NCBI GenBank assembly: GCA_009929695.1
Contig: RZZW01000011.1
Span: 159-64,158, forward strand
Reading direction: 5' to 3'
Source of the DNA: Clostridia bacterium
GTDB taxonomy: Bacteria > Bacillota > Clostridia > Oscillospirales > Ruminococcaceae
Length of the DNA: 64,000 nt
A program made the position numbers and the translations under genes. Under the pieces are notes generated by a model. That model did not search any database and had not been told where the DNA came from. It saw only the letters and a program-made list of their open reading frames with translations. Of this stretch, positions 66 to 58,212 are shown piece after piece (the stretch's first letter is position 1; each line of letters starts with the position of its first letter).

Positions 66-1454
66 TTATTTGCTTTTAATATACTCATCAATCGCTTTTG
101 CGGCTTGTTTGCCGGCGCCCATTGCCAAAATTACTGTGGCTGCTCCGGTTACGGCGTCGCCGCCGGCGTAGACGGCGGGGCGGGTGGTTAGGCCGTCGTC
201 GCCGTTTGTTACTATGCAGCCGTGCTTATTTGTTTCAAGTCCGGGGGTTGTCGAGCGGATAAGCGGGTTCGGGCTTGTGCCGATTGACATTATCATGCAG
301 TCGATATCGAGTGTGAACTCGCTGTTTTCCTTGACAATCGGACGGCGGCGGCCGCTTGCGTCGGGCTCGCCGAGGGTCATTTCGACACATTTCATGCCGC
401 AGACATAGCCCTTTTCGTCGCCGAGAACCTCTGTTGGGTTGCAGAGCGTTTTGAAGATGATGCCCTCCTCCTCGGCGTGCTCGACCTCCTCTTTACGTGC
501 GGGGAGCTCTTCCATGCCGCGGCGGTAGACTATGTAAACCTCGTCTGCGCCCATGCGCTTTGCGCTGCGCGCGGCGTCCATTGCGACGTTGCCGCCGCCG
601 ACTACTGCGACGCGCTTTGCGTGCATTACAGGCGTATTTGTGCCCTCTTTGTAGGCCTTCATCAAATTTATTCTCGTCAAAAATTCGTTTGCGGAATAAA
701 CGCCGTTAAGGCTTTCGCCGGGGATATTCATAAATCTTGGCAGACCTGCGCCTGAGCCGATGAATACGGCTTCTGCGCCGTCGTCGAAGATTTCGTCGAT
801 TGTGATTGTTTTGCCGACGACTACGTTTGTCTCAACGTCAACGCCGATTGCTTTGAGGCCGTCGACCTCGTTTTGAACGATTGCTTTGGGCAGACGGAAC
901 TCGGGTATGCCGTAGCTTAAAACGCCGCCCGCGACGTGAAGCGCTTCGTACACAGTGACCTTATAGCCCATTTTGGCTAAATCGCCCGCTGCTGTAAGTC
1001 CGCTTGGGCCTGAGCCGATGACGGCTACCTTATGTCCGTTTTGCGTTGGCATGGCGGGCTTTTCTGCTCCGTGCTCGCGGTGATAATCGGCGACAAAGCG
1101 CTCTAAACGGCCTATGCCGACGCTCTCTGCCTTGATGCCACGAACGCATTTGCCCTCGCACTGGCTCTCCTGCGGGCAGACGCGTCCGCACACGGCGGGC
1201 AGGCTGCTTTGAGCGTGCAATACGGCGTATGCGCCCTCGATATCCTCTGCGGCAACCTTGCCGACGAACGCGGGAATGTCTATCTTCACAGGGCAGCCTG
1301 ACACACAGGGCTTGTTTTTGCAGTTGAGGCAGCGTTTTGCCTCTTCGACTGCCATTTCGTATGTGTAGCCGAGAGCTACCTCGCTGAAGTTTTTATTTCT
1401 AACATCCGGCTCTTGAACAGGCATCGGACATTTATTGGGGGTCATGTTTGGCAT
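66..1454 (-). CDS. nfnB: NfnB-type NADPH-dependent oxidoreductase (GltD-like, homotetrameric glutamate synthase family)
   Basis: 462-aa ORF. N-terminal Cys clusters (CLNCKNKPCVSGCP and CGRVCPQESQCEGKC) fit two 4Fe-4S sites. Dinucleotide fold VAVIGSGPSGLTAAGDLA. Sits downstream of an NfnA-like gene. Confidence 0.85.
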   Translation of the reverse strand: MPNMTPNKCPMPVQEPDVRNKNFSEVALGYTYEMAVEEAKRCLNCKNKPCVSGCPVKIDIPAFVGKVAAEDIEGAYAVLHAQSSLPAVCGRVCPQESQCEGKCVRGIKAESVGIGRLERFVADYHREHGAEKPAMPTQNGHKVAVIGSGPSGLTAAGDLAKMGYKVTVYEALHVAGGVLSYGIPEFRLPKAIVQNEVDGLKAIGVDVETNVVVGKTITIDEIFDDGAEAVFIGSGAGLPRFMNIPGESLNGVYSANEFLTRINLMKAYKEGTNTPVMHAKRVAVVGGGNVAMDAARSAKRMGADEVYIVYRRGMEELPARKEEVEHAEEEGIIFKTLCNPTEVLGDEKGYVCGMKCVEMTLGEPDASGRRRPIVKENSEFTLDIDCMIMSIGTSPNPLIRSTTPGLETNKHGCIVTNGDDGLTTRPAVYAGGDAVTGAATVILAMGAGKQAAKAIDEYIKSK

Positions 1455-1490
1455 TTGTGTGACGTCTCCTTTTTAAATTTTAAGGTAATT

Positions 1491-1621
1491 GCGGACGAGC
1501 GAAGCTCGCCCCTACAATTGTAATTGCATCGCCGTTAGTTTGGGTGAAGCTGCGCGGGTCGTCGAGGACTCTGGCCCCTACGCACCTTGCAAGAATGTAG
1601 GGACGCCATATATGGCGTCCG
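1491..1621. repeat. Three GTAGGG-headed hairpin units (REP-like) between nfnA and nfnB
   Basis: gcggacgagcgaagctcgcccctaca (1491-1516), gggtcgtcgaggactctggcccctacg (1556-1582) and tgtagggacgccatatatggcgtccg (1596-1621). The same unit types recur at 4525, 22150, 29026, 38346 and 49222. Confidence 0.85.
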
Positions 1622-1633
1622 AAGTTGCAGGTT

Positions 1634-2467
1634 TTATTTATTTAATAAATTGCATGTCGCTTCGCGGGCGTGGGCTTCAAAGTCTTTGTACATTGAGCCG
1701 CGGTGCATGGCTTCGTCGAAGTCGACTAAATGGCCGTCGAAATCGGGGCCGTCTACGCAGGCGAATTTTGTTTCGCCGCCGACTGTAAGGCGGCAGCCGC
1801 CGCACATGCCTGTGCCGTCTATCATGATTGGGTTCATGGAGACTATTGTTTTTACGTTATATTTTTTTGTTGTTGCGCAGACGAATTTCATCATTATGAC
1901 AGGCCCTATTGTGATGACCTCGTCGTAATTTTCGCCGTCGTTTATAAGCTTTTCGAGCGCGTTTGTGACAAGACCCTTTTCGCCGTGGCTGCCGTCGTCT
2001 GTCATCATGACAAGCTTGTCGGAGACAGCGGCGAAATCGTCCTCTAAAATCACCAAATCTTTATTGCGGAAGCCGACGATTGAGTGAACTATTGTGCCTT
2101 GCTCGTGAAGTGCCTTTGCGATTGGGAACGCGATTGCGCAGCCAACGCCGCCGCCTACTACGGCGACCTTTTTAAGCCCCTCAATATGCGTTGCGGTGCC
2201 GAGAGGGCCGACGAAATCGCAGATATATTCGCCCTCGTTAAGAGCGTCGAGCGCCATTGTTGAAGCGCCGACTATCTGATAAATTATCGTGACTGTGCCC
2301 TTTTCGCGGTCATAATCAGCGATGGTGAGCGGCACGCGCTCGCCGTCCTCGGTTGCTCTGAAGATGATGAACTGACCCGGCTTCGCCTTTTTTGCCACTA
2401 GTGGCGCTTCGACAACCATCTTTGTGACGGTTGGGTTAAGGCTTATTTTTGAAACTATTTTATACAT
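1634..2467 (-). CDS. nfnA: NfnA-type ferredoxin-NADP+ reductase subunit (FAD / 2Fe-2S, PyrK/SudB-like)
   Basis: 277-aa ORF with the C-terminal DGTGMCGGCR 2Fe-2S motif and a PyrK-like FAD/NAD fold pattern. Paired with the GltD-like subunit. Confidence 0.85.
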   Translation of the reverse strand: MYKIVSKISLNPTVTKMVVEAPLVAKKAKPGQFIIFRATEDGERVPLTIADYDREKGTVTIIYQIVGASTMALDALNEGEYICDFVGPLGTATHIEGLKKVAVVGGGVGCAIAFPIAKALHEQGTIVHSIVGFRNKDLVILEDDFAAVSDKLVMMTDDGSHGEKGLVTNALEKLINDGENYDEVITIGPVIMMKFVCATTKKYNVKTIVSMNPIMIDGTGMCGGCRLTVGGETKFACVDGPDFDGHLVDFDEAMHRGSMYKDFEAHAREATCNLLNK

Positions 2468-2490
2468 TTCCCTGCTCCTTTGAAATTGGA

Positions 2491-3762
2491 TTACTTTATT
2501 GCGTCAAAGCCTGCTTGCAAATCTTCGATGATATCGTCGATGTGCTCAAGCCCGACGGAAAGTCTGATTAATCCCGGCGTGATGCCGCAGGCGACAAGCT
2601 GCTCGTCTGTTAGCTGACGGTGTGTGCTTGACGCGGGGTGCAAAACGCAGGTGGCGATGTCGGCAACGTGCACGACGTTATTTGCGAGCTTTAGGCTGTC
2701 CATAAATTTGACGGCAACCTCGCGCCCGCCCTTTATGCTGAACGAAATTACGCCGCTTGCGCCGTTTGGAAGATATTTTTGCGCAAGCTCGTAATAGGTG
2801 TTGTTTTTAAGCGTTGGATAATTGACAAACTCGACACACGGCTGTGCGGCGAGGAACTCGGCGGCTTTTTCGGCGTTGCGGCAATAGCGCTCCATGCGGA
2901 CGGCTAGTGTTTCAAGCCCTAAATTGAGATAAAACGCCGCTTGTGCACCGGGATACATGCCGAAATCGCGCATGAGCTGAACGCGCGCCTTTGTGATGTA
3001 AGCGGCTTTGCCGAACGACTTTGTGTAGGTCAAGCCGTGGTAGCTTTCGTCGGGGGTGCAAAGGCAATCAAACTTGCCGTTATCCCAGTCGAAATTGCCG
3101 CTGTCAACGACTACACCGCCGACCTGTATGGCGTGACCGTCCATATATTTTGTTGTTGAATGTGTGATTATATCTGCGCCGAACTCAAACGGACGGCACA
3201 TCACCGGCGTTGCGAACGTGTTGTCGATGATCAGCGGCACGCCATTTTTATGGGCGACGCGGGCAAATTTTTCGATATCTAAAACGTCGATTGACGGGTT
3301 TGCGATTGTCTCGCCGAACATCGCTTTTGTGTTTGGCTTGAACGCCTTTTGAAGTTCATCCTCGCTTGCGTTTTGGTTAACAAATGTCACGTCGATGCCA
3401 AAGCGGCGCAGTGTGACGTTGAAGAGGTTAATTGTGCCGCCGTAGATTGTTGACGAGCAGACAAAGTGGTCGCCTGCTTCAAGAATATTTGCGATTGACA
3501 AAAAGCTTGCGGCCTGACCACTTGTTGTGCAAAGCGCGCCCACGCCGCCCTCAAGCGCCGCGATTTTTTCTTCAACCGCCGCGACGGTGGGGTTAGAAAT
3601 ACGCGAGTACATATGGCCGTCGACCGATAAATCAAACAGCTTGCCGATGTGCTCTGTAGAGTCGTAGGTATATGTGGTGCTTTGGTAAATAGGCAGCGCC
3701 TTGGGCTCGCCGTTTTTAGGCTGATAGCCCTCGTGGAGACATTTTGTTTCGATGTGAGACAT
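2491..3762 (-). CDS. metY: O-acetylhomoserine sulfhydrylase (PLP-dependent Cys/Met metabolism family), paralogue 1
   Basis: 423-aa ORF with conserved SxTKYxxGH PLP-lysine region (HSTTKYMDGH) and the family-typical C-terminal LIRLSVGLEHIDDII. Second paralogue at 30203..31486. Confidence 0.85.
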   Translation of the reverse strand: MSHIETKCLHEGYQPKNGEPKALPIYQSTTYTYDSTEHIGKLFDLSVDGHMYSRISNPTVAAVEEKIAALEGGVGALCTTSGQAASFLSIANILEAGDHFVCSSTIYGGTINLFNVTLRRFGIDVTFVNQNASEDELQKAFKPNTKAMFGETIANPSIDVLDIEKFARVAHKNGVPLIIDNTFATPVMCRPFEFGADIITHSTTKYMDGHAIQVGGVVVDSGNFDWDNGKFDCLCTPDESYHGLTYTKSFGKAAYITKARVQLMRDFGMYPGAQAAFYLNLGLETLAVRMERYCRNAEKAAEFLAAQPCVEFVNYPTLKNNTYYELAQKYLPNGASGVISFSIKGGREVAVKFMDSLKLANNVVHVADIATCVLHPASSTHRQLTDEQLVACGITPGLIRLSVGLEHIDDIIEDLQAGFDAIK

Positions 3763-3787
3763 ACTTCTTTCTTCTTTCTTCTTTCTT

Positions 3788-4300
3788 CTATTTTCTTTGT
3801 AAAACCGTCCCCGACTCCACTTTTGCCTGCGGGGGGACGATATTATTTGCTTTTATAATTGCGCCGGGGGCTATGTGGCAGCAGACGCCGAGCGTGCAGT
3901 CGTGGTCTATGAGCGCGCCGATGTTTATTATGCTGCCGTCCTCTACCTTTGTGTTTGTGTTTATGACGGCGTTTGGCAGCACTATTACGCCGAAGCCTAT
4001 GTCTGCCGAGGGACTTATGTAGGCGTGCGGGTGTATCATAGTGGGGACGAAATAGCCTGCGTCGTGAAGCTCCTTCATCCATGCGTAGCGCAGTGAGTTG
4101 TCGCCGAACGCGGGGTATGCGTCGGAAAATTCCGAAATAAGGCTCTCGCGACGGTATGCGCCGCAGTGGGCTATAACGTCATCGGCGTCGAGCGCGCCGT
4201 CGTCGAGAAAGGCTATGTGGTCGTAATCTCCAAGTGATATCGCAAGCTCGCGCACGGTGCGTCCAAAGCCGCCCGCGCCGAGAATAAGCAGACTTTTCAC
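3788..4300 (-). CDS. NeuD/PglB-type left-handed beta-helix (hexapeptide) acetyltransferase
   Basis: N-terminal LLILGAGGFGR Rossmann-like motif followed by hexapeptide-repeat-like C-terminus. The ORF opens at 4372, but GTG at 4300 preceded by AAGGGAAG is the more plausible start. Confidence 0.65.
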   Translation of the reverse strand: MKSLLILGAGGFGRTVRELAISLGDYDHIAFLDDGALDADDVIAHCGAYRRESLISEFSDAYPAFGDNSLRYAWMKELHDAGYFVPTMIHPHAYISPSADIGFGVIVLPNAVINTNTKVEDGSIINIGALIDHDCTLGVCCHIAPGAIIKANNIVPPQAKVESGTVLQRK

Positions 4301-54992: not shown

Positions 54993-55017
54993 AGTTTTCT
55001 CCAAAATTTATGAATAG

Positions 55018-55093
55018 TGTAGGGCAAGGGCTCTGCTCTTGCCGTAGCCTACCGATATAGGTTGCGGCGGCAAGAGCAGAGCCCTTGCCCTGC
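55018..55093. repeat. REPIN-like inverted doublet
   Basis: tgtagggcaagggctctgctcttgccg (55018-55044) and cggcaagagcagagcccttgccctgc (55068-55093). Confidence 0.85.
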
Positions 55094-55100
55094 TGTTATT

Positions 55101-55616
55101 TTATTTCCCTGTCCATCTCTCGCCGTCATACCATATGGCTTTTTGGGCGGAAAGGCTTTTGGGGACGTCTAAAATTCTTTGGTTTTTGCTGCCTCTGAAG
55201 CGCAGGTCAAGGTTGCGTTTGCTTAAAACAAACTCTCCGTCGACAAGCACATCAAGGCTTTGAAGCAGCTTTTTTTGCGCGTCTGTGCCCGCTAAAAGCT
55301 CCTCAAATGTGTAGCCCGAATAGCTTGCGACCTCGTAGCCGTCTTTTTTTAAAAGTTCGGCAAGCTCGGCAAAGCCCTCCGCTTGGCTGAACGGCTCTCC
55401 GCCCGAAAGCGTGATGCCGCTCGCAAGCGGATTGTGCTTTACAGCGTCGTAAAGCTGCTGCACCGTCATGTCTGTGCCGGTGCCAAACGCGTGGCTTTGC
55501 GGGTTGTGGCAGCCCTCGCAGCGGCGGGGGCAGCCCTGTGCAAATATCGTCACGCGTATGCCCGGGCCGTCAACAATGGAGTCCTCAATAATGCCCGCAA
55601 TGTTTATCGTAGACAT
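55101..55616 (-). CDS. nrdG: Anaerobic ribonucleoside-triphosphate reductase activating protein (radical SAM)
   Basis: MSTINIAGIIEDSIVDGPGIRVTIFAQGCPRRCEGCHNP carries the CxxxCxxC-type cluster motif. ATG 55616 lies 1 nt after the stop of the small upstream ORF. Confidence 0.9.
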   Translation of the reverse strand: MSTINIAGIIEDSIVDGPGIRVTIFAQGCPRRCEGCHNPQSHAFGTGTDMTVQQLYDAVKHNPLASGITLSGGEPFSQAEGFAELAELLKKDGYEVASYSGYTFEELLAGTDAQKKLLQSLDVLVDGEFVLSKRNLDLRFRGSKNQRILDVPKSLSAQKAIWYDGERWTGK

Positions 55617-55617
55617 A

Positions 55618-55773
55618 TTACTTGGCAAGACCATGCTTTACGCGGTCATGCTCCTCTGACTTTTTGGCGTCGTTCCATTTGTCCATTGTGCCAACGAGGT
55701 AGCCTGTGATGCGGCGAATGCGCTCAAAGCCTACGCCGCTGCCTAATTTTTGTTCTTTTGATGTCATAACCAT
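55618..55773 (-). CDS. 51-aa peptide corresponding to the C-terminal glycyl-radical segment of NrdD
   Basis: Not in the ORF track because it is under 60 aa. Sequence MVMTSKEQKLGSGVGFERIRRITGYLVGTMDKWNDAKKSEEHDRVKHGLAK. RRITGY and the ...KK.EE..RVKH tail match the extreme C-terminus of class III RNRs. AGGAGG lies 10 nt upstream of the ATG. Confidence 0.75.
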   Translation of the reverse strand: MVMTSKEQKLGSGVGFERIRRITGYLVGTMDKWNDAKKSEEHDRVKHGLAK

Positions 55774-55846
55774 AATTGAATTTCCTCCTAATTGATATCT
55801 TATATTAATATTATACCATATTTGTTAATTATTCGCAACCACAAAA
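55768..55846. other. 79-bp AT-rich insert flanked by the 9-bp direct repeat TGATGTCAT (55759-55767 and 55847-55855)
   Basis: 18 G/C of 79 by hand count. On the minus strand it encodes FCGCE plus TAA, then TGGTATAAT (55818-55810), AGGAGG (55789-55784) and ATG (55773). Confidence 0.8.
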
Positions 55847-58114
55847 TGATGTCATTTCGGGATATAATTTGCGAAGCTCTTCTATTTTTTCAAACGGAAT
55901 TTCTTCACCCTCGTGGCGGCCACAGCGCGGGCAAACCTCACCGATAACGCCCACGTAGCCGCAGACAGGGTCGCGGTCTACAGGGTGGTTGATGCTGCCG
56001 TAGCCAACGCCTGCGTCGTGCATGCAGCGCACCACGCTCTCGAATGCCTCGATGTTGTTTGCGGTGTCGCCGTCAAGCTCGACATAGCTGATGTGGCCTG
56101 CATTTGTGAGCGCATGGAACGGCGCTTCCTTGTGAATTTTGTCGTAGGCGGAAATGCCGTACCACACAGGGATATGGAAGCTATTTGTGTAGTAATCTTT
56201 ATCCGTCACGCCCGCGATTTCGCCGTAGCGCTTTTTATCCATGCGGATAAAGCGGCCCGAAAGACCCTCGGCGGGCGTTGCGAGCAAGCCGTAGTTGAGG
56301 CCTGTTCTCTTGCTCTCGGCGTCTGTGAAATCGCGCATATGCTTGACGATTTCAAGGCCCTTTTGCTCCATCTCCTCGCTCTCGCCGTGATGATGGCCGT
56401 AGAGTGCTGTCAGCGTTTCGGCAAGGCCGATAAAGCCGATTGAAAGGCTGCCGTGCTTTAACACCTCGCGCAGCTCGTCGTTGGGGCCGAGGTTGTCGGA
56501 GTCGATCCAAACGCCCTGACCCATGAGGAACGGATAGTTGTAAACATGCTTTGTCGCCTGTATCTCAAAGCGGTCAAGCAGCTGACGTGCCACAAGCTCA
56601 AGCATTGCGTCGAGCTTTTTGTAGAACAAATTCTCGTCGCCCTTTGCCTCGATGGCAAGGCGCGGGAGGTTGATTGAGGTGAACGAGAGGTTGCCGCGGC
56701 CATAGGCGATTTCGCTGTCGGGGTACGCGGTGTTTGCCATGACGCGTGTGCGGCAGCCCATTGTGGCGACCTCTGTCTCGGGGTGACCCGCCTTATAATA
56801 TTGAAGATTGAACGGGCTGTCGAGGAAAACATAGTTCGGGAAAAGGCGCTTTGCGCTGACGCGGCACGAGAGCTCGAACAAATCGTAGTTCGGGTCGCCC
56901 GGATTGTAGTTTACGCCCTCTTTTACTTTGAAAATATGAATGGGGAATATCGCTGTTTCGCCGTGGCCGAGGCCTGCGTCCGTGGCGAGAAGGATATTTT
57001 TTATCGCCATTCTGCCCTCGGGCGTTGTGTCTGTGCCGTAGTTGATGGACGAGAACGGCGTCTGTGCACCGGCGCGGCTGTGCATTGTGTTGAGATTGTG
57101 CACAAAGCCCTCCATAGCTTGAAACGTCTCGCGATCCGTCTGCTGTGTGGCGCGCTTGCGAACTGTTTGGACGAGGTGTGCGGCGTGCGCGTTGTCCATG
57201 CGGCCGTCCTCATATATTGTGCGTATGACGGCTGCGTCAAATTCATCGGCGTCGATTTCAAGGCGCGGTGCGTTGCCTGTCGCCTGTGATGCTTTTTCTA
57301 TCGCGAGTGTGGCGAGAGCCTTCTCGTCGTCTGATTCAAGCGCGTCCTCAAGACCTTCCTTGAGCTTGCGTGCATATATTGAAGCAAAGGACTTTGCGAC
57401 GCCCTCGGCCATTGAATAGTCGAAGTTCGGCACGCCCTGACCGCCGTGCTGGTCGTTTTGGTTGCTCTGAATAGCTATTGCGCCAAGTGCGGCGTAGCTC
57501 GCGATGCTTTTCGGCTCGCGGAGGTAGCCGTGGCCTGTCGAAAAGCCGTTTTTGAACAGCTTTAAGAGGTCGATTTGGCAGCAGGTGGTGGTGAGGGCGT
57601 AGAAATCGAAGTCGTGAATATGAATGTCGCCCTCGGCATAGGCTTTATTCTGCTCAGGTGTGAGCAGATATGCGGCGTTGTAGGCTTTTGCGCCCGCGCA
57701 GCCGATTTGAAGCATGCTGCCCATGGCGGTGTTGCCGTCTATATTTGCGTTGTCGCGCTTCATGTCCGAAAGGCGCGCGTCAACGTTTGTAATCTCGTCG
57801 ATTGACTTCATAAGGCTTGTGTTTGCCTCACGAATACGTGTGCGGTTTGCGCGGTAGAGGATATATTTTTTGGCGGCGTTGTCAAAGCCCGCACGCATGA
57901 GCCCCTGCTCAACCGCGTCTTGAATTTGCTCAATTTTGGGAGGATTTTCTCCGCATTCGGCTGTCAATTTTGCCTGAACGGAATCCGCAAGCTGCTTCGC
58001 CGATGCGTCGTCGCCCTCGCCTGATGCCGCAAGTGCCTTCGAGATGGCCTTTTGAATTTTCGACTCGTCGTATAATACAACTCGTCCGTCGCGCTTAACA
58101 ATGTTCTTGATCAT
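55829..58114 (-). CDS. nrdD: Anaerobic ribonucleoside-triphosphate reductase, large fragment lacking the glycyl-radical C-terminus
   Basis: 761 aa with an N-terminal ATP-cone (IVKRDGRVVLYDESKIQKAI), a class III RNR barrel and a Cys-rich CPRCG region. It ends ...LYPEMTSFCGCE without an RxxGY motif. Confidence 0.9.
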   Translation of the reverse strand: MIKNIVKRDGRVVLYDESKIQKAISKALAASGEGDDASAKQLADSVQAKLTAECGENPPKIEQIQDAVEQGLMRAGFDNAAKKYILYRANRTRIREANTSLMKSIDEITNVDARLSDMKRDNANIDGNTAMGSMLQIGCAGAKAYNAAYLLTPEQNKAYAEGDIHIHDFDFYALTTTCCQIDLLKLFKNGFSTGHGYLREPKSIASYAALGAIAIQSNQNDQHGGQGVPNFDYSMAEGVAKSFASIYARKLKEGLEDALESDDEKALATLAIEKASQATGNAPRLEIDADEFDAAVIRTIYEDGRMDNAHAAHLVQTVRKRATQQTDRETFQAMEGFVHNLNTMHSRAGAQTPFSSINYGTDTTPEGRMAIKNILLATDAGLGHGETAIFPIHIFKVKEGVNYNPGDPNYDLFELSCRVSAKRLFPNYVFLDSPFNLQYYKAGHPETEVATMGCRTRVMANTAYPDSEIAYGRGNLSFTSINLPRLAIEAKGDENLFYKKLDAMLELVARQLLDRFEIQATKHVYNYPFLMGQGVWIDSDNLGPNDELREVLKHGSLSIGFIGLAETLTALYGHHHGESEEMEQKGLEIVKHMRDFTDAESKRTGLNYGLLATPAEGLSGRFIRMDKKRYGEIAGVTDKDYYTNSFHIPVWYGISAYDKIHKEAPFHALTNAGHISYVELDGDTANNIEAFESVVRCMHDAGVGYGSINHPVDRDPVCGYVGVIGEVCPRCGRHEGEEIPFEKIEELRKLYPEMTSFCGCE

Positions 58115-58183: not shown

Positions 58184-58212
58184 ATTATTACACTACATCT
58201 TGTGTTTGTCAA
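58184..58212 (-). promoter_or_regulatory. nrdD promoter candidate with an NrdR-box-like palindrome in the spacer
   Basis: On the minus strand, TTGACA (58212-58207), a 17-nt spacer, then AATAAT. The spacer contains acacaagatgtagtgt (58205-58190), which resembles the 16-bp NrdR box acaCwAtATaTwGtgt. Confidence 0.5.

Follow-up and report, generated by a model that had tools for sequence, protein, structure and literature searches.

In the present study, a 64,000 nucleotide (nt) stretch of the Clostridia bacterium contig RZZW01000011.1 (the window) was found to carry, on the minus strand, an nrdD operon in which the class III ribonucleotide reductase (RNR) is split over two open reading frames (ORFs). 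The first encodes the catalytic body and the second a 51 amino acid (aa) peptide with the predicted radical glycine. It is likely that the locus encodes an obligate two-subunit class III RNR, with the radical segment on a separately translated peptide that docks in trans. A survey in which one genome per species was scanned returned 80 related loci, and the two-ORF layout is present in 62 of these. Comparison of these genes shows a long-standing design that has been conserved and is spread widely among gut anaerobes; neither a recent insertion nor a dead gene accounts for it.

The features of the split gene and its activase are as follows.

55829..58114, minus strand: nrdD body, 761 aa, with ATP-cone, alpha/beta barrel, MGCR finger loop, and zinc-site cysteines
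55832..55903, minus strand: lineage-specific body tail, residues 738-761, EEIPFEKIEELRKLYPEMTSFCGCE, conserved in 59 of the 62 split loci and not in canonical NrdD
55774..55828, minus strand: AT-rich intergenic spacer of 55 nt, from body stop to peptide start, read from the sequence
55784..55789, minus strand: Shine-Dalgarno sequence AGGAGG, 10 nt upstream of the peptide ATG, read from the sequence
55618..55773, minus strand: glycyl-radical peptide gene, 51 aa, matching the last ~32 positions of NrdD models
55702..55704, minus strand: predicted radical glycine codon, Gly24 of the peptide, in RRITGY, aligned to QRITGY of Prevotella copri NrdD
55101..55616, minus strand: nrdG activase, 171 aa, TIGR02491 NrdG, 141.5 bits against a cutoff of 126

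One NrdD in two consecutive pieces

The body ORF ends in ...LYPEMTSFCGCE and a stop codon (in a longer stretch, ...CPRCGRHEGEEIPFEKIEELRKLYPEMTSFCGCE). The 761 aa polypeptide has no glycyl-radical motif and no RxxGY, as an earlier note on this DNA had stated and as both the sequence and the profile coordinates bear out. The body matches the Pfam ATP-cone and NRDD (PF13597; E = 1.3e-181, model positions 1-531 of 562) and reaches 1063 bits against NCBIfam NF005497 (cutoff 764) over model positions 1-713 of 746. The peptide covers positions 711-744 of the same model, so that the coordinates join seamlessly and the two products are two consecutive pieces of one NrdD. The finger-loop cysteine motif, defined as MGCR/MCCR (PMC9669993), is present as MGCR at body residue 452, the other catalytic motifs are also intact, and the putative zinc-site cysteines are C718, C728, and C731.

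The separate 51-codon ORF, also described in the earlier note, contains the RxxGY motif as RRITGY. It begins MVMTSKEQKLGSGVGFERIRRITGY... (complete sequence MVMTSKEQKLGSGVGFERIRRITGYLVGTMDKWNDAKKSEEHDRVKHGLAK) and consists of a variable N-terminus of about 15 aa followed by FERIRRITGYLVGTMDKWNDAKKSEEHDRVKH. The radical role of the glycine is established for class III RNRs (PMC11226230). The peptide gene ends in TAA, then one base, then the nrdG ATG at 55616, which agrees with the 1 nt separation previously reported. The ORF list and some gene callers use a start at 55634 for nrdG, giving 177 aa and an overlap with the peptide gene; the ATG at 55616 (171 aa, MSTINIAG...) is favoured by the NrdG profile and by the relatives.

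The closest solved structure is that of P. copri NrdD (8P23), in which CPKCGSHH runs directly into DKLQRITGY. The window has ~32 extra residues at this position and the split point lies inside this insertion, so that the body retains the zinc site and the peptide carries the glycine loop together with the C-terminal tail. Cysteines C718, C728, and C731 align with the P. copri zinc site, the first cysteine of CLDC is not conserved, and the 24 aa body tail (residues 738-761), which is missing in P. copri NrdD, then follows. In this NrdD lineage, the putative zinc site (body residues 710-731 of the window, about 55922-55987) has only three cysteines, the first CLDC cysteine being replaced (DRDPVCGY). 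In P. copri three elements form the glycyl radical domain, namely the zinc site, the glycine loop, which is buried, and a tail at the surface; this domain of NrdD is highly mobile and is invisible in the dATP-inhibited state (PMC11226230).

Conservation of the split layout

In the 62 split loci the gap between body stop and peptide start is 5-262 nt (median 55), the frame offsets 0, 1, and 2 are about equally frequent (21, 22, and 19 loci), and the peptide is 48-65 aa long. Every one of the 62 peptide genes has an ATG with a Shine-Dalgarno sequence, which is AGGAGG in 27. Carriers belong to several phyla and include Oscillospiraceae, Lachnospiraceae, Fibrobacter, Treponemataceae, Mogibacterium, Holdemanella, and others, with the cultured isolates Allofournierella massiliensis DSM 100451 and Acutalibacter caecimuris among them. 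In the contiguous relatives from the same set of 80 loci the linker is wholly absent, and the sequence reads CPxCGRxExxxxxxFERIRRITGY.

When a protein query spanning the junction was used, distant NrdDs (55-65 % identity) ran across the junction, while the closest matches (77-98 % identity) all ended at the same point, with the conserved tail ...ELRKxYPxxxxFxGxE and a stop. The 120 best database matches to the body are all split-type, with lengths of 752-791 aa, the longer ones reflecting N-terminal starts that were called wrongly. Among the 120 are RefSeq isolates of Ruthenibacterium, Pygmaiobacter, and Gemmiger, annotated simply as NrdD. Across genera the bodies are 75-81 % identical and their catalytic motifs are invariant. 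Likewise, the 120 best database matches to the peptide are all stand-alone proteins (50-82 aa), annotated as 'hypothetical' or 'anaerobic ribonucleoside-triphosphate reductase', and the 150 best 50 %-identity clusters, from an exhaustive search of 1.8 billion cluster representatives, are nearly all short proteins. Ten independent assemblies from different samples have the exact window layout, which excludes misassembly. Between strain lineages there are ~17 substitutions in the peptide ORF, all of which are synonymous.

Ratios of non-synonymous to synonymous substitution (dN/dS) were obtained by the Nei-Gojobori method on loci chosen through the body, not the peptide. The value is 0.078 for the peptide core (33 codons) and 0.30 for the 15 codons of the body tail after CPxCGRxxGE, anchored on the zinc motif. 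The conservation pattern of the tail in 59 of the 62 split loci is E (86 %) ... E (90 %) L (97 %) R K. Y (75 %) P (92 %), with near-fixed positions at E, E-L-R-K, and Y-P, and 9-10 residues following YP in 49 of the 59. Directly downstream of the peptide gene is nrdG in 55 of the 62 loci; in most of them it either overlaps the peptide stop (by 4-23 nt) or begins 1 nt beyond it. The body and peptide genes are under purifying selection, have their own translation signals, and are always found together; from its position, the peptide gene appears to be translationally coupled to nrdG.

These data bear on the possibility, raised in the earlier note, that nrdD is simply dead. As a decaying pseudogene, the body would be non-functional for want of a radical domain and the small ORF would be a leftover; the essential glycine is indeed missing from the body, and another RNR class elsewhere in the genome is conceivable. 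However, the dN/dS of the peptide core, the intact and invariant catalytic motifs in bodies from different genera, the translation signals in 62 of 62 loci, the retained coupling to nrdG, and the maintenance of the layout across phyla refute a dead gene, and decay is highly improbable.

All split forms share a homologous body tail, and the split is ancient and was probably inherited or transferred as a unit.

The ends of many split-type bodies contain a CxC motif (FCGCE, HCDC, PCDCNH, GCGCG, CGYCG, and TCHC). They were seen in L001, L026, L030, L032, L036, L037, L038, L041, L053, L057, L062, L068, and in the window at 55832-55846, although the largest group of split-type bodies ends FQGIE, not CxC. 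Such an ending could have a metal or redox role, or none. A member of the same split family is also present on a phage (L091; Eggerthella phage EL753P1, OP172808.1, positions 391-3830), with a 102 aa acidic ORF between body and peptide. As deposited, its peptide ORF is broken inside RRITGY by a 5 nt insertion (ATTTGACC repeated), for which a frameshift, a pseudogene, and a sequencing error are all possible explanations.

The direct repeat and the origin of the split

The earlier note had interpreted the junction as a 79 bp insertion flanked by a 9 bp target duplication, dividing one gene into two cistrons. The repeat copies are located as follows.

55847..55855, minus strand: upstream 9-mer copy ATGACATCA, Met-Thr-Ser of the body tail (ATGACAACA in sister strains)
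55759..55767, minus strand: downstream 9-mer copy ATGACATCA, Met3-Thr4-Ser5 of the peptide, read from the sequence

The 9-mer TGATGTCAT is present in both ORFs at the positions reported, the 79 nt between the copies have a G+C content of 22.8 % (about 23 % had been given), and an 88 nt deletion joins the ORFs in frame as ...LYPEMTS|KEQKLG.... Also present are TGGTATAAT, AGGAGG, and an ATG 10 nt further on. Every sequence-level statement of that note is therefore correct, yet its interpretation as insertion with duplication is wrong.

A recent insertion of a ~79 bp element into an intact nrdD in the lineage of the window would explain the exact 9-mer flanking AT-rich sequence, the frame restored by the 88 nt deletion, and the result of a repeat test at this locus. 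In that test, the last 45 nt of the body were compared with the first ~48 nt of the peptide gene in the 62 split loci and in shuffled controls. For the window locus alone p is ~0.005, which is unremarkable given that 62 loci were tested. The 9-mer match occurs only in the window; in the other 61 loci the longest match is 4-8 nt, as in the shuffles, and the same split is present there without a flanking repeat and with gaps of 5-262 nt. That relatives would have the two-ORF layout without the duplicated 9-mer was an observation the earlier note itself had named as contrary to an insertion. Even sister strains of the same species match at 8 of 9 positions only (ATGACAACA upstream, ATGACATCA downstream). 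There are 144 exact 9-mer direct repeats no more than 100 nt apart in the window, and ATGACATCA is one of three short direct repeats within a 221 nt stretch. The Met-Thr that it encodes is conserved both in the body tail (YPEMxx) and in the peptide N-terminus (MT[IV]K...).

The five codons (FCGCE) and stop attributed to the insert belong to the conserved body tail (F.G.E and stop), as the tail shared by the closest relatives makes evident. No empty, uninterrupted site was found among the 120 closest bodies, all of which are already split, and the fused product would still hold the ~32 aa linker that canonical NrdD lacks. The spacer is a single copy within the window and has no terminal inverted repeats; a metagenome scan with a 27-mer from it gave no matches, a result that is uninformative about further copies. 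The repeat in the window is therefore coincidental and not a target-site duplication, and a recent insertion is so improbable as to be scarcely credible. It could be revived only by a close relative (>90 % identity) with a contiguous ...LYPEMTSKEQKLG... gene. Of the two-cistron proposal, the two translatable genes stand, each locus having a Shine-Dalgarno sequence and ATG, but the origin by insertion does not.

No endonuclease, intron, or intein is present between the pieces in the window, where the gap is 55 nt, non-coding, and without an Rfam intron match. A group I intron was rejected as gaps can be as short as 5 nt. An ancestral homing-endonuclease or intron event is nevertheless a possible source of the split.

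Predicted independent translation of the peptide

The matched 9-mers lie 88 nt apart and would yield an in-frame product if ribosomes bypassed the sequence between the ATGACATCA sites. Full-length NrdD could in principle also be produced by frameshift or read-through or, as a variant of this explanation, by post-translational ligation, and rare metagenome fragments (P0002, P0003, P0005, P0006, P0007, and P0008) have a single ORF through the gap. Matched codons are, however, found in none of the other 61 loci. The frame offsets, being about equally frequent, show no frame constraint, gap lengths vary widely, and the loci in which the pieces are separated by a single in-frame stop number only 10 of 62. 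A strong Shine-Dalgarno sequence and an ATG precede each peptide reading frame. In the window, the stop codon is five codons past the putative take-off site, not adjacent to it, and the spacer RNA is unstructured, folding no better than shuffled sequences (z = +1.0). There are no ligase or intein motifs, and the extensions, of 24 and 14 aa, are much shorter than a split intein would need; a split intein was rejected on both grounds. From these comparisons, bypass, frameshift, and read-through are excluded as a general mechanism, and recoding or ligation of any kind is very improbable.

The single-ORF metagenome fragments have long linkers that hold the residues of a former Shine-Dalgarno sequence and ATG (e.g. 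...GGIIM... and ...KGESIM...). These footprints suggest that the fragments derive from split forms, as natural re-fusions, or that they are assembly errors.

Regulatory sequences

Candidate regulatory features of the operon in the window are listed below.

58184..58212, minus strand: putative main operon promoter, TTGACA-17-AATAAT with upstream TG (consensus scan, 11 of 12 matches)
58190..58205, no strand assigned: NrdR-box-like palindrome ACACAAGATGTAGTGT (coding strand), between -35 and -10, with 2 mismatches to ACACWATATATWGTGT
55810..55838, minus strand: putative internal promoter, TTGCGA-17-TATAAT with upstream TG (extended -10; consensus scan, 10 of 12 matches)
55016..55098, no strand assigned: long near-perfect hairpin 3′ of nrdG, read from the sequence, likely the operon terminator

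The NrdR-box consensus ACACWATATATWGTGT was reportedly given by Rodionov and Gelfand in 2005. The presence of a similar box in the predicted promoter suggests that the split operon may be under ordinary NrdR control. An Rfam scan of the operon gave only spurious sub-threshold matches, to microRNA families, at the terminator hairpin.

The -35 of the putative internal promoter, a sigma-70-like site, overlaps the last body codons, and TGnTATAAT in the gap is kept in both strain lineages. Promoter-like sites are also present in the gaps of several relatives with long gaps. However, in 22 of the 62 split loci the gap is no more than 35 nt, leaving no room for a promoter, and a separate promoter is therefore not a general feature. 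In a Lachnospiraceae metagenome-assembled genome (L010), a terminator-like hairpin is found in the 171 nt gap, together with a promoter-like site (TTGACA) and an NrdR box that is near-perfect, ACACAATATATTGTGG; here the peptide gene and nrdG may form their own NrdR-regulated unit. The longest gap (262 nt), in A. massiliensis DSM 100451 (L003), has a high GC content, several hairpins, and a TATAAT-like site and is not similar to other gaps.

These sites raise the question of whether the peptide is chiefly regulatory or consumable, with RNR activity set by the dose of peptide and activase or with a free activated peptide shuttling the radical. The promoter-like sites in the gaps of the window and of several relatives, the terminator, promoter, and NrdR box ahead of the peptide gene in L010, and the tight coupling of that gene to nrdG rather than to the body are in keeping with this. 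Against it are the short gaps without space for a promoter and the chemistry, since an exposed glycyl radical is unstable and the comparable YfiD protein is activated only when bound (PMC8683613). Such a role is unlikely, although it elaborates the two-subunit explanation and does not exclude it.

A proposed two-subunit class III RNR

It is proposed that the locus functions as an obligate two-chain enzyme. The 761 aa body would contribute the ATP-cone, the catalytic barrel with its MGCR cysteine loop, and the zinc site, while the radical loop and C-terminal tail would come from the 51-codon gene with its own strong ribosome-binding site. The peptide would be produced together with the activase and would dock non-covalently into the barrel, in trans. 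The body tail (E..h.ELRKKYP and 9-10 aa) and the ~15 residue N-terminus of the peptide are, by analogy, the probable docking elements that replace the covalent tether. NrdG would install the glycyl radical on the peptide, from which it would pass to the finger-loop cysteine as in ordinary NrdD. Since there is no glycyl site in the body, the peptide does not serve as a spare. A likely benefit is that oxygen cleavage at the radical glycine would cost only the 6 kDa peptide and the 86 kDa body could be re-armed; the peptide and activase might also be expressed from their own promoter.

There is precedent for these steps. YfiD supplies a glycyl-radical domain to pyruvate formate-lyase (PFL) in trans and is activated once bound, and its binding is mediated by PFL residues next to the break and by the disordered N-terminus of YfiD (PMC8683613). 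The split NrdA of Aeh1 is fully functional (PMC2988022). The earlier note divided NrdD into a catalytic body and a glycyl-radical peptide with its own cistron, and suggested that the radical domain might be provided in trans; this is strongly supported by the comparison of genes.

Several points count against a two-subunit enzyme. The canonical zinc site is only ~8 residues from the radical loop, so that a cut there is structurally drastic. An AlphaFold2 model of body and peptide, made with a bodies-only alignment, is poor (predicted local distance difference test score 62, predicted template modelling score 0.54); its glycyl segment is one long helix, which was not interpreted, and docking and the role of the tail are therefore without structural support. 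Function in trans is inferred from the comparison of genes. A neighbour-joining tree, which carries no support values, interleaves split and contiguous forms, and a single origin is not established. Finally, other RNRs and a contiguous nrdD were looked for in the 64 kb window only; none was present, nor was a second NrdD or glycyl segment found there.

In a wider form, the proposal is that gut and rumen anaerobes have a large, hitherto unrecognized branch of class III RNRs that are obligately two-chain, with the glycyl radical on a detachable 'cartridge' of ~50 residues that would be made with its activase, docked through the tail, and replaced after oxygen damage. This wider form is about as likely as not to be correct.

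Significance

Glycyl radical enzymes are viewed as single chains in which a buried C-terminal glycine swings out to meet the activase, and this glycine is irreversibly lost on exposure to oxygen. If the proposal is correct, this would be the first glycyl radical enzyme in which the cofactor-bearing segment is always a separate polypeptide. It would carry the 'spare part' principle from the formate lyases to an enzyme on which anaerobic DNA synthesis depends, and would point to an inexpensive repair route with which strict gut anaerobes might better survive transient oxygen. It would also provide a natural minimal substrate for the question of how activases reach a buried glycine, and a system of only two components in which activation, docking, and radical hand-off could be studied. 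The proposal can be tested directly in cultured organisms.

For annotation, the consequence is practical. As bodies are named as complete NrdD and peptides as 'hypothetical' or NrdD, the completeness of RNRs may be misjudged by pipelines, and the split branch may have been overlooked or thrown out in surveys of full-length NrdD. Full-text literature searches, with thin coverage of subscription journals, found no description of a split NrdD, and the design has apparently gone unrecognized so far.

Comparison with known systems

The resemblance to the gene 60 bypass of phage T4 is superficial only. Identical short sequences flank a non-coding gap in the window, but neither the matched sites nor the frame relation nor the gap length is conserved, and the peptide gene always has a Shine-Dalgarno sequence and ATG of its own.

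Split RNR genes are known. Examples are nrdA-a/nrdA-b of Aeromonas phage Aeh1, divided by a mobE insertion, NrdJa/NrdJb of Pseudomonas aeruginosa, and phage nrdD split by introns or homing endonucleases (PMC2988022; PMC3653736; reference in PMC9669993). As in those cases, the catalytic subunit is encoded here as two consecutive ORFs, theirs being known to reassemble. Those genes, however, either belong to class I or II or were interrupted, in single phage lineages, by an intron or endonuclease, whereas here there is no mobile gene in the gap, the cofactor segment itself is isolated, and the arrangement is found in many bacterial genera.

In its proposed function the peptide is like GrcA/YfiD, without belonging to that family. 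GrcA/YfiD is a small protein that stands alone, duplicates the glycyl-radical segment at the C-terminus of its partner enzyme, and is supplied in trans (PMC8683613); according to a 2026 review, formate lyases are the only enzymes for which such spare parts are known (PMC13450708). YfiD backs up a PFL that has its own radical domain, after oxygen cleavage, while the peptide here would be the sole source. The peptide is also shorter (51 aa, compared with 127 aa), is encoded within the operon beside the activase, and matches Pfam NRDD (PF13597) only, not Gly_radical (PF01228).

Compared with the canonical NrdD/NrdG systems of Escherichia coli, phage T4, and P. copri (8P23), the family is the same, nrdG is adjacent, and the domain order is shared: ATP-cone, barrel, MGCR finger loop, putative zinc site, RxxGY loop, and C-terminal tail. 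The difference is that the break in the chain falls after the zinc site and before the glycyl loop, placing the radical glycine on a separate 51 aa polypeptide, and that ~40 extra residues (the 24 aa tail and the ~15 aa peptide N-terminus) replace a connection of ~8 residues. In every respect tested with a clear outcome, the locus is a class III RNR except for the defining placement of barrel and glycyl loop on one chain.

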